Shown: one piece after another, positions 33,808 to 49,249 of the stretch
How the letters are laid out: the number at the start of each line of letters is the position of its first letter
How positions within the stretch are numbered: position 1 is the first letter of the stretch
IMG/VR virus record: IMGVR_UViG_3300032954_000005
Coordinates: 1 to 64,000 of that record
DNA: 64,000 nt
Source: a virus
Reading direction: 5' to 3' (one strand)
Translations under genes and position numbers: made by a program
Notes under the pieces: model-generated
The model's database searches: none
The model's input: only the letters and a program-made list of their open reading frames with translations
What the model was told of the DNA's origin: nothing

Positions 33808-35712
33808 ATGAGCGCGCCCAAGGTCACGATCGTCGACTTCGAGACGGAGCGGATTCAGCCGCGGCCGCACTATCCTCCTAAGCCCGTGGGCGTGGCGCTG
33901 CGCTACCCCGGGCGGCGGGCGAAGTACCTGGCGTGGGGGCACTCGTCGGGGAACAACACGACGCGCGACGCGGCCGTGCGCGAGCTGCGCGACGTGTGGC
34001 ACGGCGATCTTCTTTTTCAGCACGCGAAGTTCGACCTCGACGTGGCGGAGACCCACCTCGGGCTGCGCCCGCCGCCCTGGGACCGCGTTCACGATACGAA
34101 GTACCTTATCTTCTTCCGCGACCCGTACGCGCCGTCACTGTCGCTGAAGCCGAGCGCTGAGCGCCTCCTGGGCATCAAGCCCGAGGAGCGCGATCGCCTG
34201 CGGGAGTGGGTGCTCGGGCATGTGCCCGAGGCGCGCCGGAAGCCAACAGAGTGGGGCGCGTACATCGCGCGCGCCCCGGGGAACATCGTGGCGCCTTACG
34301 CGTGCCAGGATGTTGACGATACTGCAGCGCTGTTCGACCACCTGTGGCGTGAGGTGGTCGAGGGCTGGTCGATGCGTGAGGCGTACGACCGCGAGCGCCG
34401 GCTCATGCCGATCCTCCTTGAAAATGAGCGCGCGGGTGTGCGCGTCGACCTCGACGCGATGCGGCGCGACCTCGTCGTTTATAAGAAGGCGCTCGAGACG
34501 GCGGACGCGTGGCTACGTAAACGCTTAGGCCTACCAAGGGACGCAAACATCGACAGCGACCCGCTGATGGCGCAGGCGTTCGTCAACGCGCGGGTCGTTA
34601 CCGGCCTCAAGCGCACCGCGCCTACGAAGAAGTTTCCCGACGGGCAGCCGTCGGTGTCGGGAAAGAACCTCACGCCCGACATGTTCCTCGACCCGCAGGT
34701 GGCGTCGGCGTACGCATATCGCAATAAGCTGTCGACGTGCCTGGGGACGTTTCTTGAGCCCTGGATCGAGCTGGCGCAGGAGTCGGCTGGCGACCCGCGC
34801 ATACATACCTCGTGGAACCAGGTACGCGCGTCGGAGTCGGGTGGAAAGTCGTCGGAGGGCGCGCGCTCGGGCCGCATGTCGAACCAGCCCTCGCTGTCGA
34901 ACGTTCCCGTGGACTGGTCGAAGGCGAAGGGAGAGGGGTACGTCCACCCTGGGTTCCTCAAGGTTCCAAAGCTTCCGCTCATGCGCGTCTACTTCCTGCC
35001 CGACCCCGGGGAGCGGTGGGGAAAGCGCGACTACAACGGGCAGGAGCTGCGCATCCTCGCCCACTACGAGGACGGGCCGCTCCTCGCGCGTTATCAGGCG
35101 AACCCGCTCGTCGACATCCACCAGGAGGTGCGGGAGGGGTTCATTCAGTACGCGAACGTCGACCGCCCCAGAAAGTCGGTAAAAAACGCGAACTTCGCCG
35201 ACATCTACGGCGAGGGCATCGGCCAGCAGGCCACGACCCTGGGAATCAGCGTGGCGCAGATGCGTCTGCTGCGCCACATCAAGGACACGCAGCTCCTGCC
35301 CGGCGTGGCGTCGCTGCGCCACGAGCTGATGCGGATCTGGAAAACGGGCGGCGCGATTAGGACGCTGGGCGGGCGGGAGTACTACTGCGAGCCCGCGCGG
35401 TTCGTTAAAAAGCAGAACCGGGTGATGGACTTCGCGTACAAGGCGCTGAACTACCTCATCCAGCCCTCGGGGGCCGACATGATCAAGCAGTCGATCATCG
35501 ACTATCATGAGCACCCGAAGAGAGAAGCGCGGTGGCTGCTCTCGGTCCACGACGAGAACGACGCGTCGATGCCGCGGTCGAAGGCTGGGCACCGGGAGCA
35601 GCAGCGCGTCCTTGCCGAGGCGATGGAGGGCGCGTTTAAGCTCGACCTGAAGATTATTACGGACGGCGAGAGCGGGCCCAACTGGGCCAAGCTCGAAAAG
35701 TGGGAGGACTAG
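33808..35712 (+). CDS. DNA polymerase, family A (3'-5' exonuclease plus polymerase)
   Basis: ExoI DFET, ExoII HAKFD, ExoIII YACQD; motif A DYNGQELRILAH, motif B RKSVKNANFADIYG, motif C VHDE. Confidence 0.95.
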   Translation: MSAPKVTIVDFETERIQPRPHYPPKPVGVALRYPGRRAKYLAWGHSSGNNTTRDAAVRELRDVWHGDLLFQHAKFDLDVAETHLGLRPPPWDRVHDTKYLIFFRDPYAPSLSLKPSAERLLGIKPEERDRLREWVLGHVPEARRKPTEWGAYIARAPGNIVAPYACQDVDDTAALFDHLWREVVEGWSMREAYDRERRLMPILLENERAGVRVDLDAMRRDLVVYKKALETADAWLRKRLGLPRDANIDSDPLMAQAFVNARVVTGLKRTAPTKKFPDGQPSVSGKNLTPDMFLDPQVASAYAYRNKLSTCLGTFLEPWIELAQESAGDPRIHTSWNQVRASESGGKSSEGARSGRMSNQPSLSNVPVDWSKAKGEGYVHPGFLKVPKLPLMRVYFLPDPGERWGKRDYNGQELRILAHYEDGPLLARYQANPLVDIHQEVREGFIQYANVDRPRKSVKNANFADIYGEGIGQQATTLGISVAQMRLLRHIKDTQLLPGVASLRHELMRIWKTGGAIRTLGGREYYCEPARFVKKQNRVMDFAYKALNYLIQPSGADMIKQSIIDYHEHPKREARWLLSVHDENDASMPRSKAGHREQQRVLAEAMEGAFKLDLKIITDGESGPNWAKLEKWED

Positions 35713-35922
35713 AGTGAAGCACAAGGGCTGCGGCGGCGAGGTGATTTTCGATGCTGATGAGGTATTTTTCAAAGGATACCGCTTTACTGGAGAAGAGGCA
35801 AAGCAGTTCGGCGCGTTCGTTTCGGCGACTGTTTGCCTGAGATGCAAGCAAGAGGTTATCGGCGACCGCGATGATTGACCTGGGAGAGAACGAATTTATG
35901 TACAATGAGACGAAGGAGAAGA

Positions 35923-36627
35923 ATGCCAACCCCTAAGCTGGTGACGATTACGGCGTGGTCGTACTCGCGCTACAACGACTACGTAAAGTGCCCGGCGCTC
36001 GCGAAGTACAAGCATGTGCTGCGCATCCCCGAGCCCTCTAACCATGCCATGGAGCGTGGCGGCGTGATCGATCAGCTCGCGGCGGACTACGCGCTGAAGA
36101 AGTTGCCCGCAGCGCCCGTGCCCGCGGAGCTCGCGCGGTTCGCGGAGGAGTTCAAGCTGCTGCGCCGGGAGAAGTCGCTCGTGGCGCAGGCGGAGTGGGC
36201 GTTCACCGCGACGTTCGACCCCTGCGGGTGGAAGGACTGGGGGCGCGCCTGGGTCAGGATCAAGACGGACCTCCACTACCTGACGGGCAGGGGGAAGGCG
36301 TGCGTCGTCATCGACGTCAAGACTGGGCGCGAGTACCCGGAGCACAAGAAGCAGCTGTCCCTCTACGCCCTGGGGGCGTTCCTCACGTACCCGAACGTCG
36401 AGCGGGTAACGGTGGCCGATTGGTACGTTGACCAGGGAACGATCGGGGGGCCGGAGGCGTGGGAGTGCAATCAGCTCGACGCGCTGAAGCTGGAGTGGAT
36501 CAAGGCGACGAAGCGCCTCCTCAGTGACACGGCGTTCGCACCCACGCCCGGCCCGCAGTGCAAGTGGTGCTTCTTCCGGAGGAGCAACGCGGCGGCGGGC
36601 GGCGGGCAGTGCAAGTTTGACGGCTAA
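35923..36627 (+). CDS. PD-(D/E)XK Cas4-like exonuclease
   Basis: WSYSRY....KCP, KTD, IDVKTG, QLSLYA, C-terminal CKWC..C. Confidence 0.85.
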   Translation: MPTPKLVTITAWSYSRYNDYVKCPALAKYKHVLRIPEPSNHAMERGGVIDQLAADYALKKLPAAPVPAELARFAEEFKLLRREKSLVAQAEWAFTATFDPCGWKDWGRAWVRIKTDLHYLTGRGKACVVIDVKTGREYPEHKKQLSLYALGAFLTYPNVERVTVADWYVDQGTIGGPEAWECNQLDALKLEWIKATKRLLSDTAFAPTPGPQCKWCFFRRSNAAAGGGQCKFDG

Positions 36628-36634
36628 GGAGGGT

Positions 36635-36964
36635 ATGACGATGCGTTGCTTCTACTGTGGCACCGTGCTGACGACGGCCCCCGCGGCGCGCAGTCCGCGC
36701 CGGGCAAGTGTAGATCACCTTACGCCGTTGAGCCGGGGCGGGCGCGATAAGCGCAACAACAAGGTGCGGGCGTGCCAGGCGTGCAACCGCGACAAGGGTC
36801 CGCTGACGCTCGAGGAGTACCGCGTAATTAAGTTGTTTCGCGCGGGCAAGCTTAACACTAATAGCTTGGACAGTCTTCAACTTGTAGATCGCCCCTGTTA
36901 TGAGTTTTGGGGCGAGCGGCAGCTTCGTGAGCGGAAGGAAAAAAACGCTGAATGCGATTCATAA
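36635..36964 (+). CDS. HNH endonuclease
   Basis: CFYCG...VDHLTPLSRGG...N...ACQACN..K. Confidence 0.9.
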   Translation: MTMRCFYCGTVLTTAPAARSPRRASVDHLTPLSRGGRDKRNNKVRACQACNRDKGPLTLEEYRVIKLFRAGKLNTNSLDSLQLVDRPCYEFWGERQLRERKEKNAECDS

Positions 36965-37278
36965 TGAAGCGAGAGTCGGCGATCGAGCAGAACATCGTCA
37001 GCTACTCCCTGGAGAGGTACCGCGTGGGGTCGATCAAGCTCAACGTGATGTCGAACGCTGGTTACCCCGACCGCCTCTTCCTGTTCCCCAGGCGCCCGAC
37101 GTGGCTGGAGATCAAGAAGCCCGGGGAGGAGCCGACGCCCCTCCAGTACACGCGCCTCCAGGAGCTTGAACAGCTGGGCTACACGGCGGCGTGGGTCGAC
37201 AACGAGGCGGATGGGCGCGCGTTCGTCGATCGCTGCGCGACGTTGGCGTTACGCAAGAGGAAAGATGCTAAACGATAA
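36964..37278 (+). CDS. VRR-NUC nuclease
   Basis: ESAIE...GYPDR...WLEIK.PGE.PTPLQ. Confidence 0.85.
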   Translation: MKRESAIEQNIVSYSLERYRVGSIKLNVMSNAGYPDRLFLFPRRPTWLEIKKPGEEPTPLQYTRLQELEQLGYTAAWVDNEADGRAFVDRCATLALRKRKDAKR

Positions 37279-38755
37279 CGGAGCAATTACGCCGCAGGAG
37301 TGGAGGCCGGAGCCCTACCAGGTGCACGGCGTGGAGTTCTTGGTCGGGCAGGGCGCCGCGGGCCTCTTCTTCCCGCCCGGCATGCGAAAGACGTCGGTCG
37401 TGCTCAAGGCCCTGAAGACGCTGCGCGACGCCGAGCAGGTCGGGTCGGCGCTGGTGGTCGCGCCGCGCCGCCCCTGCCACCTCGTGTGGCCGCGTGAGAT
37501 CCAGAAGTGGCGTGAGTTCAACGACCTCACGTACGTCGTCCTTCATGGCCTGACCGAGAAGCAGCGCGGGCGCGCGCTCGAGGAGAAGGAGAGAAAAGAT
37601 TTATACATCATCAATCCGGACGGGCTCCCCTGGCTCCTCAAGGACAAGCTGCGGCTCCGCCGGCTGGGGATCGACGTGCTAATTGTGGATGAAAGTAGTA
37701 AGTTTAAGCACGCGAACACGCAGCGCTTCAAGCTGGTGAAGCCGTTCCTTCCGCAGTTCAAGCGGCGCTACATCATGACGGGAACGCCCAACCCGAACGG
37801 GTACCTCGACCTTTTCGGGCAGATCTACCTCCTCGACCTGGGGGCGGCGCTGAGCCCGTACTACTCGCACTACCGCAACACCTACTTCTACTCGGTCGAC
37901 AAGTTCGGCTGGAAGTGGAACCTGATGCCCGGCGCTGACCAGCTGATCCAGAGGCAGATCAAGCCGCTGATCCTCTGCCTCGACGACAAGGACTACATCA
38001 AGCTTCCGCGGTTCGTCGGGACGGCGGGCGACGCGACGGAGCACCAGATTCGGGTGGAGCTCCCGCCCGACGCGCGTAGAATCTACGACCAGCTCGAGGA
38101 AGACATGATCGCGCGCGTGGGGGGCGAGACCGTGCTGGCGGTGAACGCGGGTGTCGTCACCCAGAAGTGCGCGCAGGTGGCGAATGGTGGCATCTACTAC
38201 GATGAGGCGCCGGGGGCGGACCTGCGCGAGCGCGCGCCGCGCCGGACGGTGCAGCTGCACGACGCGAAGACCGAGGCGCTTCAGGAGCTGATCGACGAGC
38301 TGAACGGCGCGAGTCTTCTCGTGCTGTACGACTATCATCACGACCTGGAGCGGCTAGCAGCCGCGTTCTTTCCCAGGGTACCATTGAAGGACGTTCCCTA
38401 CATCGGCGGGCAGGTGACTGACCGGCGCACCGCCGAGCTGTGCGACCGCTGGAACGCGAACCAGCTCCCGCTTCTTCTCGGTCACCCCGCGGCGATGGGG
38501 CACGGGCTGAATCTCCAGGACGGCGGGCAGCACATCTGCTGGTACTCGATCCCGTGGGACCTCGAGCTGTACGATCAGACGAACCGCCGCGTCAGGCGTA
38601 GCGGGTCACGCCACGCGCGGGTGTTCGTTCACCACCTGGTGGCGGAGGCGACGGTGGACGTGGCGAAGATGGCGGCGCTGCGCCGCAAGGATAAGACCCA
38701 GCGCGGGCTCCTTGACGCGCTGCGGGAGTACATTGGCAAGAAGAAAGGACGATGA
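37265..38755 (+). CDS. SNF2-family helicase
   Basis: PGMRKT, IVDESS, MTGTP, GHGLNLQ, Q...RVRRSG. Confidence 0.9.
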   Translation: MLNDNGAITPQEWRPEPYQVHGVEFLVGQGAAGLFFPPGMRKTSVVLKALKTLRDAEQVGSALVVAPRRPCHLVWPREIQKWREFNDLTYVVLHGLTEKQRGRALEEKERKDLYIINPDGLPWLLKDKLRLRRLGIDVLIVDESSKFKHANTQRFKLVKPFLPQFKRRYIMTGTPNPNGYLDLFGQIYLLDLGAALSPYYSHYRNTYFYSVDKFGWKWNLMPGADQLIQRQIKPLILCLDDKDYIKLPRFVGTAGDATEHQIRVELPPDARRIYDQLEEDMIARVGGETVLAVNAGVVTQKCAQVANGGIYYDEAPGADLRERAPRRTVQLHDAKTEALQELIDELNGASLLVLYDYHHDLERLAAAFFPRVPLKDVPYIGGQVTDRRTAELCDRWNANQLPLLLGHPAAMGHGLNLQDGGQHICWYSIPWDLELYDQTNRRVRRSGSRHARVFVHHLVAEATVDVAKMAALRRKDKTQRGLLDALREYIGKKKGR

Positions 38756-39111
38756 CGATGTCGGGTTTCGTGGTAGTAAAACTGCGGTGGCCCAGGTCGG
38801 TGCCGCTTGACCAGATTAGCGAGAAGTTCCTGCAGGGCATGCTCGACCGCATGGCGATGGGGTTCCACACCTATGGTCATGTTATGCGTGACGAGAATGT
38901 GCCCGACGCACTGGCGTCCCTCGACGTGCGGCTGAAGAAGTACCGCGTCACCGGGAACACTGAGTTCCTGATGGACTGCGCGAACTTCTGCATGATGGAG
39001 TTTATGCGCCCGTCGGTCGAGGACGCGTACTTCGAGCCGACAACGAAGCGGGAGAGTCCGGGCGCGGTTCTCCTCGACAAGCGGCGGGTGAAAGGCAAGG
39101 AGGACTACTAA
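38752..39111 (+). CDS. Hypothetical protein, possibly an all-alpha nucleotide pyrophosphatase-like protein
   Basis: RMAMGFHTYG...GNTEFLMDCANFCMME; first gene of the nucleotide-modification cluster. Confidence 0.5.
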   Translation: MTMSGFVVVKLRWPRSVPLDQISEKFLQGMLDRMAMGFHTYGHVMRDENVPDALASLDVRLKKYRVTGNTEFLMDCANFCMMEFMRPSVEDAYFEPTTKRESPGAVLLDKRRVKGKEDY

Positions 39112-39244
39112 TGAAGATCGTACGGCCGTACATGCGAATGCTGACGACGGGCGACGTCTTATTCGTCAGGCACCGTCTTGCGTCGTACACCCAGGAGGAC
39201 ATCGAACCTGAGGGGCGCCAGATCGACAACCTAAGGAGGGCGCG

Positions 39245-40009
39245 ATGAGGATTGGAATTATCGGAAACGGGGTTCTCGGGTCCACGCTTCACAGGTGGTT
39301 CCGTGAAAAATTTGTTGACGTTGCAGTCTACGACGCGAACCCTGAGCGGTCGCTGAATACGTTCGACGAGGTGGCGGCGGCCGACTGGGCGTTTATCTGC
39401 ATCAACATCCTCGACAACTGCGCTTCGTTGGAGTCACGTTGGTCGCTGCTTAACTTGACGCGTGAGCTTTCGAGGGTGAAGACGATCGTTGTGCGCACGA
39501 CGGTCGTTCCGGGAACAACCGACTTTCTTCGCACGCGGACGGGGTTGACGATCCTGTTTTGGCCCGAGTTCCTGGTCGAGCGCGCGCCGTGGCGGTCGTT
39601 CTCCGAGCCTGCGCTTCAGGTCGTCGGCGCGGCGCGGGAGGACCTTGCAGTCGCCTATACGCTGCAGCGGATGGCGCCCGCCGCGAGCTGCTGCGCGCGC
39701 GTCGTTACGCCGCGCCAGGCGGAGATTCTAAAGCACGCGCTCAACGCGTGGCTCGCGACAAAGGTGAGCTTCTTTAACCAGCTCTACGACTACTTCGGCG
39801 ACGACCTTGGGCCGGTGGTCGAGGCTCTGCGGCATGAGCCGCGCGTGGGCGCGACGCACATGGACCAATATCAGGACGGCTACCGCGGCTGGGGCGGCAA
39901 GTGCTTCACGAAGGACGTTCCTGCGCTCGCCGCGCTCACAAAGGGAACGATCCTCGATGCGGTCGTAAAGTATAACGACGCGCTGATAAGGAAGGGAGAG
40001 AAGGGATGA
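39245..40009 (+). CDS. UDP-glucose/GDP-mannose 6-dehydrogenase family protein (short form)
   Basis: GNGVLG Rossmann motif, RTTVVPGT, PEFL, AEILKH..N, catalytic GWGGKCFTKD; no C-terminal domain. Confidence 0.88.
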   Translation: MRIGIIGNGVLGSTLHRWFREKFVDVAVYDANPERSLNTFDEVAAADWAFICINILDNCASLESRWSLLNLTRELSRVKTIVVRTTVVPGTTDFLRTRTGLTILFWPEFLVERAPWRSFSEPALQVVGAAREDLAVAYTLQRMAPAASCCARVVTPRQAEILKHALNAWLATKVSFFNQLYDYFGDDLGPVVEALRHEPRVGATHMDQYQDGYRGWGGKCFTKDVPALAALTKGTILDAVVKYNDALIRKGEKG

Positions 40010-41040
40010 GGATACTCCTAACGGGCTTCAACGCCCGCTCGACGGGCTCCAAGCTTCTGCGGATGACGTACGTATCGACCTCGGGCGCGCTCCTCCGCGG
40101 CCTCAGCGACCTCGGGCACGAGGTCGACATGCGCCCTCCCGTGTTCGGGGAAGACCTGTCGGCGTACGACCTCGCGCTCATCGCGCTCGCCCTCCTGGGG
40201 GCGCGCGGGACGTACCACCACGAGAAGTGCGCATGGGTCTTAAAGGCGATGGCGGACCGCTGCGTCCTCTACTTCGACGACTGGTCGACGTACCTCCTCG
40301 CCTACGACATGGACTACCGCCTCAACGTGATCCGCGACAAGTACCTCAGGTGGCGCGGCTGGGAGAACCTCCCGAGGAACGTGCGCACGACGCTCGTCGA
40401 GGAGATGAACCGTATCATCTCTCCCTCCTGCCCGTGGCCGCTCCTTCTTCCGACGTTCGCGTGGGGCGACCACTCCCTGATCACAACAGCGCGCCCCGGG
40501 TTCGCGCTTCACCCGTCGCGGGTGTACACGCTCGACCCGACCTACCTCGCAGAGCTTCCCCCGGTTCCCGTTCCCGCTCCCGCGGCGCGGCGCGAGCACG
40601 CGTGGGTGCACGCGACCCTCCAGGACAACGACCGCTGGCTCGAACGCCAACAGTGCGGGTGGCCCGTGAAGCGCTTCGGGAACGTTCGCCTCGGTGACCC
40701 GTGCGTGGACGAAGAGATGGTCGTCAACGAGTACGCGCGCGCGTGGGGCATAACCTGCCCAGAGTATAAGATCTCCGGCTCCGGCTGGTGGCGCATGCGT
40801 TACCACTACGCGGCCGCACTGGGGTGTGTGATGCTGACGACGGGGGCCGACGCTCGAGCGCTGGGCGAGGCGTTTCAGTTCACCGCGCGTGACTACGAGG
40901 CGATGGCTCTGAAAAGGCTGCGGGAGGTCGCGCAAGCGCAGGGCGATCGCGTACGCGAAACGATGGACACGCGCAGGCAGGCGCTCGCGAAGCTCGCGCG
41001 CATGGTCGACGATAACGCACGGAAAAGGAGATCACGTTGA
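40006..41040 (+). CDS. GT-B glycosyltransferase resembling T4 beta-glucosyltransferase (putative DNA glycosyltransferase)
   Basis: Size (344 aa) and pattern L.DLGHEVD...DLSAYDL, LYFDDW, KRFGN, WW..R..AA..GCV parallel T4 BGT; gene context. Confidence 0.6.
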   Translation: MRILLTGFNARSTGSKLLRMTYVSTSGALLRGLSDLGHEVDMRPPVFGEDLSAYDLALIALALLGARGTYHHEKCAWVLKAMADRCVLYFDDWSTYLLAYDMDYRLNVIRDKYLRWRGWENLPRNVRTTLVEEMNRIISPSCPWPLLLPTFAWGDHSLITTARPGFALHPSRVYTLDPTYLAELPPVPVPAPAARREHAWVHATLQDNDRWLERQQCGWPVKRFGNVRLGDPCVDEEMVVNEYARAWGITCPEYKISGSGWWRMRYHYAAALGCVMLTTGADARALGEAFQFTARDYEAMALKRLREVAQAQGDRVRETMDTRRQALAKLARMVDDNARKRRSR

Positions 41041-42140
41041 AGCCCGTACTTTTAATCAACAGCTACGCCGGGTCGCTGAACATTGCGGCCCACGCCGTCG
41101 GGGCGAAGATCGTCGGCTCCTACGAGGACTGCGGGTTCGGGCTCAGCGCGCAACAGCTCAACTATCCGGGCCTCGACTACCGCGCGACGACCGCCGACTG
41201 GCCGCGGCGTCCTGACCTCGCGGGTTGCGTTGTGATCGCGCACCCGCCCTGCGCAGCGTTCTCCGTAATAAATAGTTCATACGGTAAAGATATTCGTGGA
41301 GTTAAAGCTAATAGCTTTCAGCCGCACAAGGTCGTGATGCGGTACGCGCTCGGCGCGGGTTGTGATGGGCTGGCGATCGAGTCGGTGCCGGGTGTGCTGC
41401 GCGCCGCGTCCGTGTACCTCGATTACGCGCGCCGCTACCGGTACAATGCGTTCTTCGTGAAGCTGAACTCCGTGACGTTCGGTTGTCCTCAGTGGCGCCC
41501 GCGTGTCTGGATTCTCTTCAGCCGCGAGCCCGCGCTCGCCGTGGAGTACACGCCGAACGTTCAGCCGCTGTCAACCGTCATGCGCGTGAAGGGGACGCCC
41601 GACTTTAACACGATCTTTTACCAGAAGACGATCGCCGCCTTGGCGAAGATCACGCGCGTGTCGGAGAACGAGGCCTACGAGACGCTCTACTCGGGCGAGC
41701 GCATCGCTACCGTTCGCAAAATTGTTCAAGATACATACGGAGAAAAAATACATGAGCGTTGGCTTCAAGCGTGCGGAAGTTTTTTCGACATGCATTATCC
41801 GCGCGTTGTAAGCTCAGAACGTTGGGCGACGACGATCCTGCACAGCACGTTCTTCGTCTGTCACGGGCGCCCGCTCTTCGTCGAGGAGTACGAGGGAATC
41901 ATGGGGTTCCCGCGCGATTGGCGGTGGCCCGACAAGCTGCGGCGCAGCTACAAGCTTTACCTCTCAAAGGGCGTCTGCCCGCCCGTCGCGGCGTGGGTGC
42001 TGCGCGCTTTGGGCGAGGAACCCGCGCACCCGAACCTGCAGCTGCTTCCACGGCAGCTGTGCGACATCACCGTTACCCAGAAAGAGGCCGTCGAGCTTCT
42101 TACGCAGCAGCGAAGGAGAAAAAATGCGGGCGTTAAATAG
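41037..42140 (+). CDS. Divergent DNA cytosine-C5 methyltransferase-like protein
   Basis: Motif IV HPPCAAFS, VI IESV, VIII PQWRPRV, IX MGFP, X KGVCPPVA; motif I degenerate (INSYAGS). Confidence 0.8.
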   Translation: MKPVLLINSYAGSLNIAAHAVGAKIVGSYEDCGFGLSAQQLNYPGLDYRATTADWPRRPDLAGCVVIAHPPCAAFSVINSSYGKDIRGVKANSFQPHKVVMRYALGAGCDGLAIESVPGVLRAASVYLDYARRYRYNAFFVKLNSVTFGCPQWRPRVWILFSREPALAVEYTPNVQPLSTVMRVKGTPDFNTIFYQKTIAALAKITRVSENEAYETLYSGERIATVRKIVQDTYGEKIHERWLQACGSFFDMHYPRVVSSERWATTILHSTFFVCHGRPLFVEEYEGIMGFPRDWRWPDKLRRSYKLYLSKGVCPPVAAWVLRALGEEPAHPNLQLLPRQLCDITVTQKEAVELLTQQRRRKNAGVK

Positions 42141-43053
42141 GGTCGTCATCGTTGAGGGGCCAGACGGCGCGGGCAAGACCACGCTGTGCCGTGAGCTGAA
42201 GGAGCGCTACCGCGAGTGGGGAGCGTCCGTCGCCCCGATCATGGAGCACGAGGGCGTGCCCGCGGCGGGCGTCGACCCGTTCACCAGCTATACGGAGAAG
42301 CTCCTGCGCTACCTGACGGCGCGCGTCCCGCGCGTCCTCGACCGCTTCCACCTCGGGGAAACGGTCTACGGCCCGATCTGCCGCGGCGAATCGAAGCTGG
42401 GCGCCTACGGCGTGCGCCTTCTCGACCGCCTCTGCGCGGCGTACGGCGTCGCGATCATCGTCGCGCTTCCCGCGCGCGCGACGTGCGTCGCGAACTGGCG
42501 CCTGAAGGATGACTACGTCAAGACGGAGGCGACGTTCAGTGCGGTCTATGACGCCTACGTGTCCTTAAAATTTCGCTACCTAGCCTACGACTACGAACGC
42601 GAGGGTAGCCTGACGGATCTCTTCGAGTATCTAAATAAGCCGCGGCCGACGCTTCCGCTGGGGGCGGCGGGGAGCCCCGCCGCGCGCGTCCTCCTCGTGG
42701 GCGAGCGCCCGAATGGGGCGCTTGACCTGCCGTTCCACGCGCTCACGAACAGCTCACGCTATCTAAACGACGCCCTCGAGCGGGCGGGGCTCCCTGAGTA
42801 CGCGCTCGCCCTGGCCAACGCGCGCCGCTGGGACAACCAGCCGTTCGACCTGCACGCGTTGGCCGCGCAGCTACCGAACCTGCGGCTCGTCGTTCCACTG
42901 GGAAACGTCGCGGCGCGCGCCGTTCACGCGCTGGCGCACAACGGGGTCGACGTTCTCCCGCTTCCCCACCCGCAGCACTGGAAGCGGTTTCACGCGCGGG
43001 AGGCTGAGGCCTATGTTCAAATGCTCAAGGAGGTGAAGCGTGTCGCGCTTTAA
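42124..43053 (+). CDS. dNMP kinase fused to a uracil-DNA-glycosylase-like domain
   Basis: N-terminal VEGPDGAGKTT and LDRFHLGE.VYG; C-terminal VLLVGERP, LGNVA, LPHP. Confidence 0.8.
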   Translation: MRALNRVVIVEGPDGAGKTTLCRELKERYREWGASVAPIMEHEGVPAAGVDPFTSYTEKLLRYLTARVPRVLDRFHLGETVYGPICRGESKLGAYGVRLLDRLCAAYGVAIIVALPARATCVANWRLKDDYVKTEATFSAVYDAYVSLKFRYLAYDYEREGSLTDLFEYLNKPRPTLPLGAAGSPAARVLLVGERPNGALDLPFHALTNSSRYLNDALERAGLPEYALALANARRWDNQPFDLHALAAQLPNLRLVVPLGNVAARAVHALAHNGVDVLPLPHPQHWKRFHAREAEAYVQMLKEVKRVAL

Positions 43054-43894
43054 CCAGGTCAGTGAAACGTTTGGGCAGGCGTGGTACAACCTCGTTGACC
43101 ACATCGTCTACGAGGGGAAGGTCACGTGCCCCCGCGGGCTCGAGACGCGTGAGACGACGGCCGTGTCCCTGACCGTGACAAACGCCCTTCAAAACGTGCT
43201 CGTCGACCCGACGCGCAACCTGAACTACAGGTTCATGGTCGCCGAGTGGCTGTGGATCACCGCGGGGCGCGCAGACGTCGCCTCGATCGCCGCGTTCAAC
43301 AAGGAGGTCGCGAAGTTCTCGGATGACGGCATAACGTTCGCGGGAGCCTACGGGCCGCGGCTCCTTCCTCAGTGGCCGTGGCTCCTGTCGCTTCTTCGGC
43401 GCGAGCCCGACACGCGCCAGGCGGTGGCGACGATCTTCACGCCCACGCCCGCGTCGTCGCGCGACGTCCCCTGTACGCTCTCCCTCCAGCTCTTGCGGCG
43501 CGACGCGCGCCTCCACGCGATCGTCACGATGCGCAGCAGTGACGTGTGGCTGGGGCTCCCCTACGACTTCTTTAACTTTTCGATGCTCCTCGCGTCGTGC
43601 GCCGCGGCGCTCGAAATCGACGTGGGCGCGTTGACCTTTAACCTCGGGTCGTCGCACCTGTACGCGGCGAACCTCGACGCGGCGCGCGAGGTGCTGCGGA
43701 GGCAGGAGACGACGACCCTCCCGTCGCCGCGGCTTCCGCGGTACGTGACGGCGACCGCGGCGGAGGTGACCCTCCTGGACGTGGACCTCGTCAACGGCCT
43801 GAGCGCGGAGCGCCTGCCCGTTTATTACGACGCGCTCCACGTCGCGAAAACCCGCCGGGAGGCGCTGGAGGTGCTGCGTGCCGCGCGAAAGTAA
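43040..43894 (+). CDS. Thymidylate synthase homologue, probably dCMP hydroxymethylase/methylase
   Basis: GAYGPR, DTRQA, catalytic DVPCT, MRSSDVWLGLPYD (Asp at the E. coli ThyA Asn177 position), SSHLY. Confidence 0.85.
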   Translation: MSRFNQVSETFGQAWYNLVDHIVYEGKVTCPRGLETRETTAVSLTVTNALQNVLVDPTRNLNYRFMVAEWLWITAGRADVASIAAFNKEVAKFSDDGITFAGAYGPRLLPQWPWLLSLLRREPDTRQAVATIFTPTPASSRDVPCTLSLQLLRRDARLHAIVTMRSSDVWLGLPYDFFNFSMLLASCAAALEIDVGALTFNLGSSHLYAANLDAAREVLRRQETTTLPSPRLPRYVTATAAEVTLLDVDLVNGLSAERLPVYYDALHVAKTRREALEVLRAARK

Positions 43895-44342
43895 AAACGC
43901 GTACTACCTCGCGATGCTCGCGCTCGTCGCGACGCGCGGCACGTGCCCGCGGCGGCGGGTGGCGGCGATCCTCACCGACGCGGAGGGGCGCGTCCTCGCA
44001 ACCGGGTACAACGGGCCCCCGCCCGGATACCCGCACTGTATCGACGACCCGTGCCCGGGGGCAAGGGACGCGGCGGGGGACACGTCGCGCTGCGTCGCCA
44101 TCCACGCCGAGCAGAACGCGATCGTCCAGGCGGGGCTGGGCGGAAACCTGGCGCGGGCGCGGCACCTGTACACGTCGGCGTCGCCGTGCTTCTCGTGCTG
44201 TAAGCTGCTGTGCGCGCTTCCCGCGCTGTGGGAGATCTACGCGCTCGACCTGTACCCCGACGCCGCGGGCCTCGACCTGCTGCGGCGCAGGAGAATTAAG
44301 CTTTTCGTTAAGACCAACGACGGCCTAAAGGAGATCTTATGA
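43878..44342 (+). CDS. dCMP deaminase
   Basis: TC.RR.V.A, TGYNG, HAEQNA, PCFSC zinc motifs. Confidence 0.92.
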   Translation: MPRESKNAYYLAMLALVATRGTCPRRRVAAILTDAEGRVLATGYNGPPPGYPHCIDDPCPGARDAAGDTSRCVAIHAEQNAIVQAGLGGNLARARHLYTSASPCFSCCKLLCALPALWEIYALDLYPDAAGLDLLRRRRIKLFVKTNDGLKEIL

Positions 44343-44926
44343 ACGACGACTACACCGCGTGGGAGCTGGTACGCGCGTTCCACCTGCGGTACGGCCACGC
44401 TGCGCCCGACGCGCTGACCGCTCTTTCGCCCGAGGTGCGGCTTCTTCGGCAGCGCCTAATTTTGGAAGAGCTCGGCGAGCTCGCGGTCGCCGTTCACCAG
44501 CGCGACCTCATCAAGATCGCCGACGCGGGGTGTGACCTCGCGTACGTCCTTCACGGGACGGCGGTCGCCGCGGGCAAGCTCTCGCGCTCGATGTGGACGT
44601 ATGACCCGGTAAAGAGCGCGATCGAGCGGCCGTCGCTCACGCGGGTCGCGCTGAGCGCCGCGACGTGCTGCGCGAAGCTCGACACCGACGGCGTCGCGTA
44701 CTACGTGGAGGCGGCCGTCCTCGACGTGGGGCTGCTGCTGCGGAGTCTTCGGATTCCGTTCGAGGCGTGTTTTCGCGAAGTGCACGCGTCGAACATGACG
44801 AAGGCCGTTCCCAGCGCGACGAAGCCCGGTGAGAAGTACGGCGACGGCGAGAAGACTGGGAAGGGCGCGACGTTCGTCCCGCCTGACCTGCGCGCGATTC
44901 TTCGCGACGCGGGACTTACAGTTTAG
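44339..44926 (+). CDS. MazG-like (PRA-PH type) NTP pyrophosphohydrolase
   Basis: VRAFH, LILEELGEL, IADAGCDLAYV, FREVHASNMTK. Confidence 0.85.
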   Translation: MNDDYTAWELVRAFHLRYGHAAPDALTALSPEVRLLRQRLILEELGELAVAVHQRDLIKIADAGCDLAYVLHGTAVAAGKLSRSMWTYDPVKSAIERPSLTRVALSAATCCAKLDTDGVAYYVEAAVLDVGLLLRSLRIPFEACFREVHASNMTKAVPSATKPGEKYGDGEKTGKGATFVPPDLRAILRDAGLTV

Positions 44927-45816: not shown

Positions 45817-45878
45817 CGCAGAGGACGACGATCGCCACGCGATCGTCGTAATGCGGCGCGCCGGTTCCAAGCCCGGCG
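45817..45878 (+). ncRNA. Twister ribozyme copy 2 (type-P5-like permutation)
   Basis: CGCA-GAGGA-CGACGATCGC/GCGATCGTCG-T^AA-TGCG-GC..CCGG-TTCCAAGC-CCGG; predicted cleavage 45849/45850. Confidence 0.88.
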
Positions 45879-45930
45879 GGTTCGTATAATAACGATGCGA
45901 CGCGGCGCACGTACCGCAGAGGAGAGCAAG

Positions 45931-47448
45931 ATGAACACAACGCAGTTCAGTCCGCTTCAGCAGCGCATCTTCAAGTTCGTCGCGGAGGAAACCGGGAACG
46001 CATCGATCGAGGCGGTCGCCGGGTCAGGCAAGACGACCACGATCGTGGCCGCCGCGTCGTACCTTCCGCCAACGTCGCGCAACCTCTTTCTGGCGTTCAA
46101 CAAGTCGATCGCCGAGGAGCTCGCGACACGCCTTCCCGCGCACGTCACGGCGAAGACGTTGAACAGCCTTGGGCACGGCGCGTGGGCCGCAAAGCTCCGC
46201 CCAGCCCGCCTAAAGCTCGACGCCAACAAGACGCGCGCCATCCTCGATAAGCGCGTCGTCGAGGCAGACAGAAAGCTGTACGGCTCCCTGGTGACGCGCC
46301 TCGTTGCGCTGGCGAAGTCCGCGGGCCTCGCACCCGCGGGTGCCCCAAACGCATATCCCCTGGTGGACGACACCCTCGATGCGTGGCTCGACATGATCGA
46401 GTACCACGACCTGGAGGTGCCCGAGGAGGGAAACGTCAACCGCGCGATCGACCTGGCGCGCAAGGTGCTCAGCGAGTCGATTCGGCAGGCGTTTCTTGGC
46501 TGCATCGACTTTGACGATCAGATCTACATGACGGTGGTCTACCGCGCTCCGATGAGCAGGTTTGACTTCGTGTTTGTCGATGAGGCGCAGGACCTTAACT
46601 GCATCCAGCACCAGCTGATTGCGATGGCAATCAAGTCGGGCGGTCGGCTCATCGCGGTGGGGGACCCCCGCCAGGCAATCTACGGCTTTCGTGGGGCGGA
46701 TGCGTCGAGCATGGAAAACCTGCAGCGGCGCTTTCGCACAGTAACGCTTCCGCTGTCGATCAGCTACCGCTGCCCACAGGCCGTGGTCCGCGAGGCGCAG
46801 AAGCTGGTTTCGCACATTCAGTCAAGCGAGACGGCGCCCGTCGGGGTTGTTGAAACGCTTGACGCGTACAACGCCGATACGTTTAACGACAGCGACGCAA
46901 TCGTGTGCCGCAACGCGCGACCCCTGGTCGCGCTCGCCTTCCAGCTGATTCGCGCCGGGCGTGGCTGCCGCGTCCTTGGGCGGGACATTGGCCAGGGCCT
47001 TCAGGCGCTCATAAAGAAGATGAACGCGGCCGACGTTGACGCGCTCGAGACCAAGCTTGACGCCTACCTCGACCGTGAAACGCGCCGCCTGCTCGCGAAG
47101 AACCAGGACGCGAAGGTCGCGGCGCTCGAGGACAAGGTCGACACCATCCGCCTGTTTATCGACCAGCTGGGCGAGGACGAGCGGACGATCGACGCGCTGT
47201 TTGGGAAGATCGACGCACTGTTCACCGACAACGGCCACGGAAAGCTTACGCTGTGCACCGTCCACAAGGCGAAGGGCCTCGAGTGGGAGCGCGTGTTCAT
47301 CCTCGACGCGCACCTCATGCCGTCGAAGTACGCGCGACAGGATTGGCAGCTGGCGCAGGAGACGAACATCCACTACGTGGCGATCACTCGCGCGAAGCGC
47401 GAGCTGCGCTACATCGACAGCGAAGGATTCAAAGCTAAGAAGCAGTAA
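45931..47448 (+). CDS. UvrD/Rep-like SF1 helicase
   Basis: AVAGSGKT, DEAQD, VGDPRQAIYGFRG, SYRCP, TVHKAKGLE, YVAITRA. Confidence 0.93.
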   Translation: MNTTQFSPLQQRIFKFVAEETGNASIEAVAGSGKTTTIVAAASYLPPTSRNLFLAFNKSIAEELATRLPAHVTAKTLNSLGHGAWAAKLRPARLKLDANKTRAILDKRVVEADRKLYGSLVTRLVALAKSAGLAPAGAPNAYPLVDDTLDAWLDMIEYHDLEVPEEGNVNRAIDLARKVLSESIRQAFLGCIDFDDQIYMTVVYRAPMSRFDFVFVDEAQDLNCIQHQLIAMAIKSGGRLIAVGDPRQAIYGFRGADASSMENLQRRFRTVTLPLSISYRCPQAVVREAQKLVSHIQSSETAPVGVVETLDAYNADTFNDSDAIVCRNARPLVALAFQLIRAGRGCRVLGRDIGQGLQALIKKMNAADVDALETKLDAYLDRETRRLLAKNQDAKVAALEDKVDTIRLFIDQLGEDERTIDALFGKIDALFTDNGHGKLTLCTVHKAKGLEWERVFILDAHLMPSKYARQDWQLAQETNIHYVAITRAKRELRYIDSEGFKAKKQ

Positions 47449-47453
47449 AGGGA

Positions 47454-47512
47454 CGCAGAGGACGCCGGCGATCGCCGGCGTAATGCGGCAGGCTGGGTTC
47501 CAAGCCCCCGGC
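47454..47512 (+). ncRNA. Twister ribozyme copy 3
   Basis: CGCA-GAGGA-CGCCGGC/GCCGGCG-T^AA-TGCG-GC..GGG-TTCCAAGC-CC; predicted cleavage 47481/47482. Confidence 0.88.
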
Positions 47513-49186: not shown

Positions 49187-49249
49187 CGCAGAGGACGGCG
49201 CGCGCAGTACGGCGCGCCGTAATGCGGCGGTCGCGGTTCCAAGCCCGCG
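49187..49249 (+). ncRNA. Twister ribozyme copy 5
   Basis: CGCA-GAGGA-CGGCGCGC/GCGCGCCG-T^AA-TGCG-GC..CGCGG-TTCCAAGC-CCGCG; predicted cleavage 49220/49221. Confidence 0.88.

Follow-up and report, generated by a model that had tools for sequence, protein, structure and literature searches.

A phage operon predicted to make glycosylated 5-hydroxymethylcytosine, with a hexuronate as candidate sugar

Genes of the cluster

We analyzed a cluster of nine plus-strand open reading frames (ORFs) at positions 38752 to 44926 of a stretch of viral DNA that comprises the first 64 kb of the 77,248-bp IMG/VR virus record IMGVR_UViG_3300032954_000005 (rated complete by CheckV; GC content of the record, ∼63%). 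This whole 64-kb stretch, which is present in two wetland metagenome runs and for which no public RNA run was listed, is called the window here. The cluster lies 3′ of genes for a family-A DNA polymerase and an SNF2 helicase. It encodes a short enzyme resembling UDP-glucose dehydrogenase (UGDH), a glycosyltransferase (GT) with the predicted fold of T4 beta-glucosyltransferase (BGT), a divergent protein resembling cytosine-C5 methyltransferases (C5-MTases), a thymidylate-kinase-like protein fused to a uracil-DNA glycosylase (UDG)-like domain, a thymidylate synthase (TS) homologue, a dCMP deaminase, and a MazG-like nucleotide pyrophosphatase (Table 1). We propose that this phage replaces cytosine with glycosylated 5-hydroxymethylcytosine (5hmC) by the two-stage route of the T-even phages, with a hexuronate as the likeliest sugar, and assign this whole reading a probability of roughly 0.55. 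That glycosylated 5hmC is made, whatever its sugar, we regard as quite probable.

From the SNF2 helicase gene through position 44926, neighboring genes overlap by 4 to 17 nucleotides (nt), beginning with a 4-nt overlap between the helicase stop and the start of the gene at 38752. The sole apparent gap, at 39112 to 39244, is occupied by a 45-amino-acid (aa) ORF, a putative gene only, which forms a TAATG overlap with the upstream stop and an ATGA overlap with the dehydrogenase start. An earlier reading of this DNA, made from the sequence alone (the original prediction), had described overlapping genes downstream of the phage polymerase, and this was correct; among its gene assignments, eight stand and two need correction.

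TABLE 1 Features of the cluster and its surroundings, in window coordinates
Feature	Position	Strand	Matches or remarks
Family-A DNA polymerase + 3′-5′ exonuclease	33808-35712	+	PF00476 9.6e-35, phrog_17 1.1e-66
PD-(D/E)XK nuclease	35875-36627	+	
HNH endonuclease	36524-36964	+	
SNF2-type helicase	37166-38755	+	PF00176 2e-15, phrog_62 2.2e-118; opens the overlapping chain
119-aa protein	38752-39111	+	no Pfam or PHROG match
45-aa ORF	39111-39248	+	open translation, gap-bridging
Short UGDH-like NAD-dependent dehydrogenase, 254 aa	39245-40009	+	PF00984 6.7e-12, phrog_9148 9.6e-29
GT-B glycosyltransferase, 344 aa	40006-41040	+	predicted fold of T4 BGT type
Divergent C5-MTase-like protein	41037-42140	+	PF00145 5.4e-08
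Thymidylate-kinase-like + UDG-like fusion, 309 aa	42124-43053	+	PF02223, PF03167 (7.5e-08)
Thymidylate synthase homologue, 284 aa	43040-43894	+	PF00303 1.5e-21
dCMP deaminase	43878-44342	+	PF00383 4.3e-16, phrog_174 2.2e-31
MazG-like all-alpha NTP pyrophosphatase, 195 aa	44339-44926	+	PF01503 1.2e-09, phrog_671 1.8e-23
Twister-P5 ribozyme (Rfam RF02684)	45817-45876	+	
UvrD-type helicase	45895-47448	+	after the cluster
Twister-P5 ribozyme (Rfam RF02684)	47454-47509	+	
Twister-P5 ribozyme (Rfam RF02684)	49187-49248	+	

Predicted synthesis and glycosylation of 5-hydroxymethylcytosine

The best match of the synthase homologue in the Protein Data Bank (PDB) was MilA, a CMP 5-hydroxymethylase (2.5e-23), compared with ∼1e-12 for true thymidylate synthases. 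For comparison, the sequences of E. coli ThyA and T4 gp42 were drawn from annotated records and aligned with the synthase. The alignment keeps the catalytic cysteine (ThyA C146) in an invariant column, as it does the aspartate at ThyA position 169 (the D of MRSSD), which is shared by ThyA, gp42, and the window synthase. At four further active-site positions, the window synthase departs from ThyA and follows gp42, with Asp for Leu at 143 (the D of DVPC; also Asp in MilA), Thr for His at 147, Met for Gln at 165, and Asp for Asn at 177 (the D of LGLPYD; again Asp in MilA), making it identical to gp42 at all five positions (143, 147, 165, 169, and 177). Published rules hold that N177D selects dCMP as the substrate, that an acidic residue at 143 (L143D/E) accompanies hydroxymethylation rather than methylation, methyl-forming enzymes keeping 143 hydrophobic, and that D169N is the mark of flavin-dependent 5-hydroxy-dCMP synthases (PMC13326640). 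Because residues 143, 169, and 177 fit these rules, the homologue is predicted to be a 5-hydroxymethyl-dCMP (5hm-dCMP) synthase, i.e., a dCMP hydroxymethylase, and not an enzyme that makes dTMP or 5-hydroxy-dCMP, the retained D169 arguing against the last of these. The Asp of LGLPYD, which the original prediction had taken as the dCMP determinant, does align with ThyA N177 and is backed by the four other positions. Pre-replicative synthesis of 5hm-dCMP, proposed at the same time, likewise gains support from the five gp42-identical positions and the published signature, as far as sequence can indicate.

The GT belongs to a family for which a full HMMER scan returned 553 representatives (a word-indexed protein search gave one relative). 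An AlphaFold 2 (AF2) model based on an alignment of 80 of these 553 representatives reached a pLDDT of 95.9 and a pTM of 0.92. The best Foldseek match of this model was T4 BGT (1j39; E = 8.6e-07), and VIA-align superposed it on T4 BGT (1nzd) with a Z of 19.0 and a root mean square deviation of 3.8 Å over 304/351 residues; Z values were 18.3 for the selenosugar synthase SenB and 16.3 for T4 alpha-glucosyltransferase (AGT). Following the strand at residues 86 to 90, a DDW motif (D91-D92-W93) is nearly invariant in the family and is a candidate counterpart of the catalytic Asp of BGT (D100). From the modeled structure, we consider the enzyme BGT-like in fold, not a sequence-level member of the BGT family, and it is at the fold level that the earlier BGT-like assignment holds: comparison with T4 BGT succeeded by structure but not by profile alignment (see below).

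The setting of the GT was surveyed in 80 IMG/VR loci with a GT homologue, fetched by a 6-sequence GT alignment; short fragments are frequent among them and account for most of the loci in which the genes below were not found. A synthase homologue was present in 38/80, a deaminase in 40/80, a kinase in 31/80, and the polymerase (PolA) in 46/80. Every synthase with readable active-site motifs (36/36) had the gp42-like combination D/T/M/D/D, and the GT accompanies a gp42-type synthase wherever the flank is long enough. This linkage agrees with the reported association of GT-B DNA glycosyltransferase pathways mainly with thymidylate synthase homologues (∼28%; bioRxiv 2023.12.21.572611). Members of the GT family also occur in fusions, namely, C5-MTase-like + GT, C5-MTase-like + UDG + GT (some with LAGLIDADG inteins), and GT + dUTPase-type domain. 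The linkage to this type of synthase, together with fusion partners of the C5-MTase-like and UDG types, makes DNA the likely acceptor, presumably as 5hmC in duplex DNA. Glycosylation of DNA, as originally predicted, is thus supported by a modeled GT-B fold near that of T4 BGT, by synthase linkage, and by fusions to base-flipping domains.

In some C5-MTase-like + GT fusions (P0176 and P0221), the methyltransferase-like domain is interrupted by a LAGLIDADG intein. Within the clade that contains the most GT loci, a gene for a ∼340-aa protein with no Pfam match (L112:11209-12234 and its equivalents in ∼30 loci) lies directly 3′ of the GT and is followed by a dUTPase_2 or MazG-like gene; the ∼340-aa protein could be a second transferase.

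Residues ∼1 to 170 of the 309-aa fusion are thymidylate-kinase-like, and residues ∼180 to 309 resemble a family-4 UDG (AF2 pLDDT 92.0). Foldseek matched the fusion to UdgX (6l5a; 1.3e-07), to the Thermus family-4 UDG (1ui1; 1.5e-07), and to thymidylate kinases (∼1e-05). The kinase domain has the P-loop GPDGAGKT and a DRFH motif, with D73 and R74 invariant in 23 homologues, and the UDG domain conserves the motifs G[DE]RxN, PF (the stacking Phe), N232, and HPQ across 23 sequences. In family-4 UDGs, four cysteines hold a 4Fe-4S cluster; residues 180 to 309 of the fusion contain no cysteine and hence no 4Fe-4S ligands. The protein had been called a dNMP kinase, which is right for its thymidylate-kinase-like domain but leaves out the UDG-superfamily domain fused to it. 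Stenotrophomonas phage AXL3 and Actinomycetia phage DSL-LC01 have the same fusion beside a gp42-type synthase and a deaminase, and tblastn detected the fusion in two more phages, Pseudoxanthomonas phage PW916 and Bacillus phage G. We considered aGPT-Pplase, an enzyme of thymidine hypermodification, as an identity for the UDG-like domain and rejected it, since both Pfam and Foldseek pointed to family-4 UDG/UdgX and the synthase signature is of the cytosine type, aGPT-Pplase models not being among the comparisons.

The two genes that close the cluster are as first assigned. The deaminase has the zinc motifs HAEQNA (HAE) and PCFSCC (PCxxC) in addition to its Pfam match, and the MazG/PRA-PH-type protein, recognized by PF01503, weakly matched one dUTPase in the PDB, the MazG-like DR2231 (4.5e-04). 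By analogy with T4 gp56, the latter is a candidate dCTPase/dUTPase.

The PF00145 match of the C5-MTase-like protein covers profile positions 64 to 322 only, and phmmer against the PDB returned nothing at an E value of 0.1 or better. Motifs of the family are nevertheless recognizable and uphold the assignment: HPPCAAFS (motif IV, Pro-Cys), ESV (motif VI, ENV with N replaced by S), and QWRPR (motif VIII, QxRxR), with P71, C72, E115, V117, R154, and R156 invariant relative to relatives and E. coli Dcm. In C5-MTases, motif I (FxGxG) and the acidic residue of motif II bind S-adenosylmethionine. Motif I of the window protein (NSYAGSL) is atypical, the clade consensus being [FY]AG[GS][FL], and the motif II acid is present in the window protein (YED) and missing in one large subclade (RTGTL). 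According to a family HMM, a C5-MTase-like gene lies within a few kilobases of the GT in 52/80 loci, and it is this same clade that occurs as a domain fused to the GT family. The protein may methylate residual cytosines or act on 5hmC.

The 119-aa protein that opens the cluster belongs, by its sequence, to a viral family with no assigned function, separate from the dehydrogenase. It falls in viral hypothetical clusters of the ESM Atlas (score 0.97), and its nearest named clusters there, PRA-PH/MazG, score 0.83 to 0.85, a weak lead toward a MazG-like all-alpha NTP pyrophosphatase. As a UDP-binding domain acting in trans for the dehydrogenase it was rejected, since neither it nor the neighbors of other short UGDHs gave a PF03720 signal. 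The three Twister-P5 ribozymes just 3′ of the cluster (52 to 59 bits; gathering score, 37.6) are located at boundaries between genes of this operon. In the genome beyond the end of the window, a PF18823 inorganic-pyrophosphatase-like domain (6.3e-30; L166) occurs among the structural genes. None of 50,697 phage records matched the 6.2-kb region in a blastn search.

The short dehydrogenase and the identity of the sugar

The dehydrogenase has the Rossmann motif GNGVLG, in which G7, G9, and G12 are invariant, with a partial PF03721 match below the cut-off (2.9e-05), and the catalytic motif GGKCFTKD; the chain ends ∼30 residues past the catalytic cysteine. K163, K173, C220, K223, and D224 do not vary across short and full-length forms, N178 is nearly invariant, and UDP-glucose dehydrogenases were the best matches of the family profile among PDB structures (2.6e-27). 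In canonical UDP-glucose dehydrogenases, the UDP moiety is bound by the C-terminal domain PF03720, which full-length homologues have and ∼55 short homologues (248 to 306 aa) lack. Because these share the architecture of the window enzyme and conserve the catalytic residues, the short form is not a truncation artifact. To our knowledge, how UGDHs of this form bind a nucleotide sugar has apparently never been asked. The NDP-sugar 6-dehydrogenase of the original prediction is therefore UGDH-like, as its Pfam and PHROG matches indicate, but it is a protein of only 254 aa that does not include the ORF at 38752 to 39111.

Short UGDHs are common in viruses (>517 tblastn-confirmed hits). Among 98 scanned neighbors of short UGDHs on other viral contigs were 23 NDP-sugar epimerase/dehydratases of the short-chain dehydrogenase/reductase (SDR) type, 9 GT2 enzymes, and 6 GT1 enzymes; the viral short UGDHs of loci L004 to L083 usually lie beside SDR-type NDP-sugar epimerase/dehydratases and GT2 or GT4 enzymes. 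Around the closest homologue with context lie three GT2 genes and two genes for sugar-type methyltransferases. In Patescibacteria (e.g., Collierbacteria; P0050 to P0056), short UGDHs carry a LexA-type DNA-binding domain (PF01726) fused at the N terminus.

These observations can be joined into a scheme in which every activity, the acceptor, and the sugar are predictions drawn from gene content, predicted folds, active-site signatures, and linkage. Before replication, the synthase would convert dCMP to 5hm-dCMP, the thymidylate-kinase-like domain would phosphorylate this to 5hm-dCDP, and host NDP kinase would yield 5hm-dCTP. The MazG-like enzyme would clear competing dCTP and dUTP, and the dCMP deaminase would supply dTMP synthesis. 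The phage family-A polymerase, which would have to tolerate 5hm-dCTP, would then incorporate 5hm-dCMP. On DNA, the BGT-fold GT-B enzyme would flip 5hmC and transfer a sugar to its hydroxyl, the donor being an NDP-hexuronate that the short UGDH would form by oxidizing a host NDP-hexose (UDP-glucose). The fused UDG domain would probably excise uracil-type bases (U, perhaps 5-hydroxymethyluracil) arising from such a nucleotide pool.

Several results weigh against this scheme. The GT has no Pfam family and matches only an unannotated PHROG, and hhalign of its 80-sequence profile with T4 BGT gave a probability of 20% over 71 columns. The T4 scheme offers no role for the conserved C5-MTase-like gene. 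PF03720 was not found in the dehydrogenase, so its substrate may differ from that of canonical enzymes. Besides the window, just one of the 80 GT-family loci has a short UGDH (L119, 8.5 kb away), and since the enzyme is so seldom present, most members of the GT family would use another donor. Conversely, a synthase or a GT of the window type is almost never present in 80 short-UGDH loci. A metagenome scan for close relatives of the short UGDH returned nine loci, and the one with context (L168) had no synthase or GT homologue.

In the strongest alternative, 5hmC receives a neutral sugar that the host supplies (e.g., as UDP-glucose), while the UGDH serves virion or host-envelope glycans, acts at another step, or cannot use NDP-sugars without its UDP-binding domain. 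In favor of this alternative, besides the missing UDP-binding domain, 78/80 GT-family loci are free of short UGDHs over a distance of 10 kb; two close relatives, L086 and L088, hold the C5-MTase-like, GT, kinase-UDG, synthase, and deaminase genes but no UGDH; and short UGDHs are common on viral contigs with no DNA modification genes nearby. In addition, the GC content at third codon positions is 0.78 in the UGDH gene and 0.85 to 0.89 in its neighbors, which suggests that the dehydrogenase was inserted later. On the other hand, the UGDH stop and the GT start share 4 nt (ATGA), an arrangement of translational coupling inside one overlapping operon, and the catalytic residues of the dehydrogenase are all conserved. 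The closest homologues of the GT (P0081; 50% identity) and of the short UGDH (P0009; 53%) each lie on a 3130-bp Logan contig, and from the equal size and source, this is probably one and the same contig, so that the two genes may travel together elsewhere. Because a UDP-galactopyranose mutase gene adjoins other clades of the GT family, donor-tailoring genes beside the GT form a pattern. Lastly, K74 and H202 of the window GT are common only to P0081, the rest of the family having Gly and Leu; these residues, confined to the window GT and one other GT probably paired with a short UGDH, may contact a carboxylate, which we treat as a weak lead. On balance, we hold a neutral sugar to be possible, though unlikely. 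The uronate donor of the original prediction is thus favored by the catalytic residues, the coupling to the GT, and the sugar-enzyme neighbors seen elsewhere, but not by the absent UDP-binding domain or the rare linkage to the GT, and we put a uronic acid as the sugar at about even odds.

In another conceivable arrangement, the C5-MTase-like, UDG-like, and GT proteins form one post-replicative machine, and/or the UGDH oxidizes a DNA-bound alcohol, to give a new cytosine derivative; in such a machine, the C5-MTase-like protein, its residues for covalent catalysis intact and its cofactor motif atypical, would act on 5hmC and could activate C5 for exchange or substitution without S-adenosylmethionine. 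We give this a slim chance. Slimmer still are the prospects of a UGDH that by itself acts on a DNA-attached substrate, either the C6 hydroxyl of glucose on 5hmC or the hydroxymethyl group of 5hmC (yielding formyl- or carboxycytosine, on DNA or as a nucleotide). Loss of the UDP-binding domain with retention of the set for four-electron oxidation (Cys, Lys, Asn, and Asp) would suit such an activity, as would the LexA-type domain found in some bacterial short UGDHs. However, a regulator is the simpler reading of such a helix-turn-helix fusion, SDR epimerase/dehydratases make up 23/98 of the scanned short-UGDH neighbors in other phages, and we know of no precedent for action of the UGDH family on a polymer-bound alcohol.

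Least probable is a cluster that makes no glycosylated cytosine, its synthase producing 5-methyl- or 5-hydroxy-dCMP or using dUMP, or its GT acting on a protein, lipid, or small molecule, with the genes merely sharing an early operon: although the GT has no sequence-family assignment, the small-molecule and cell-envelope GT-B enzymes SenB, PimA, and BshA align with its model at Z of 15 to 18, and the active-site signatures are predictive rules, this is opposed by the identity with T4 gp42 at five diagnostic positions (D169 and the Asp at 143 included), by the C5-MTase-like and UDG domains fused to some members of the GT family, by the occurrence of the family with gp42-type synthases where the flank suffices, and by T4 BGT and AGT being among the best structural matches.

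Significance and comparison with known systems

Glycosylated 5hmC protects phage DNA against restriction enzymes and CRISPR nucleases and is itself targeted by type IV restriction, and the range of known sugars marks the bounds of that arms race. Pre-replicative synthesis of a 5-hydroxymethylpyrimidine by a TS homologue, followed by post-replicative glycosylation, is a well-known kind of system. Particular to the present cluster are a donor-forming enzyme that appears to be phage-encoded and truncated, the kinase-UDG fusion, and a divergent C5-MTase-like enzyme within the module. The operon offers a compact, naturally encoded candidate route to an anionic, uronate-bearing cytosine that would include the donor-forming enzyme, and the genes for a simple reconstitution all lie within one 6-kb block. 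Of wider use may be the large phage family of UGDH-like enzymes without a UDP-binding domain, the recurrent kinase-UDG fusion adjoining gp42-type synthases, and the C5-MTase-like clade tied, sometimes by fusion, to BGT-fold GTs in 5hmC-making phages, the role of which current schemes leave unexplained.

The T-even phages carry gp42 dCMP hydroxymethylase, gp1 dNMP kinase, gp56 dCTPase, the Cd deaminase, and alpha- and beta-glucosyltransferases. The window cluster resembles this set in its two-stage logic, the five synthase positions, the GT-B/BGT fold, the deaminase, and the all-alpha NTP pyrophosphatase. In contrast to the T-even set, its GT is no sequence-level relative of BGT (hhalign, 20%), its kinase is thymidylate-kinase-like and fused to UDG rather than gp1-like, and it adds the short UGDH and the C5-MTase-like gene; moreover, the phage, at 77 kb and 63% GC and with a family-A polymerase, is not a T4-like myovirus.

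Stenotrophomonas phage AXL3 is the one experimental anchor for the scheme, in a relative. Its DNA resists 35/37 restriction enzymes, among them those whose sites contain G/C, and was cut only by two with sites made up of A/T alone (PMC7504290). The AXL3 gp27-gp31 region shares with the window the kinase-UDG fusion (at 28% identity, with 96% of the query covered), the synthase signature, the deaminase, and an NTP pyrophosphatase; however, the region fetched has no homologue of the window GT or of the short UGDH.

As to the sugar, hexuronate (HexA)-5hmC (433 amu, i.e., 5hm-deoxycytidine + 176) and Kdo-5hmC have been obtained from reconstituted phage gene clusters (bioRxiv 2023.12.21.572611). Those clusters, described by Pyle et al., resemble the present one in that GT-A or GT-B DNA glycosyltransferases lie beside sugar-tailoring enzymes. 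The two HexA pathways (contigs 57 and 91), however, were found in an MT/5mYOX-dependent screen that drew on the E. coli sugar pool, and one of them also required a partner epimerase (bioRxiv 2023.12.21.572611), whereas here 5hmC is predicted to come from a pre-replicative synthase, and a truncated UGDH is phage-encoded. The novelty originally seen in a uronate-bearing cytosine is weakened by these products, as well as by Bacillus phage SP-15 (PMC5977210).

Phages RB69 and DLP3, which make arabinosyl-5-hydroxycytosine (PMC13326640), likewise combine a dCMP-acting TS homologue, a dNMP kinase, a phage-made NDP-sugar, and DNA glycosyltransferases. Their synthases, in contrast, have D169N and perform flavin-dependent C5 hydroxylation, whereas the window enzyme keeps D169, and the sugar pathway differs. 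In SP-15, a phosphoglucuronolactone is carried on glucosylated dihydroxypentyluracil, and a UDP-glucose dehydrogenase is encoded in the modification cluster (PMC5977210). SP-15 therefore shares with the present cluster a UDP-glucose dehydrogenase gene among the modification genes and sets an example of a uronic acid on DNA; its modified base, however, takes the place of thymine, a phosphodiester links the uronate, and the dehydrogenase has been described as an enzyme of the normal bacterial type.

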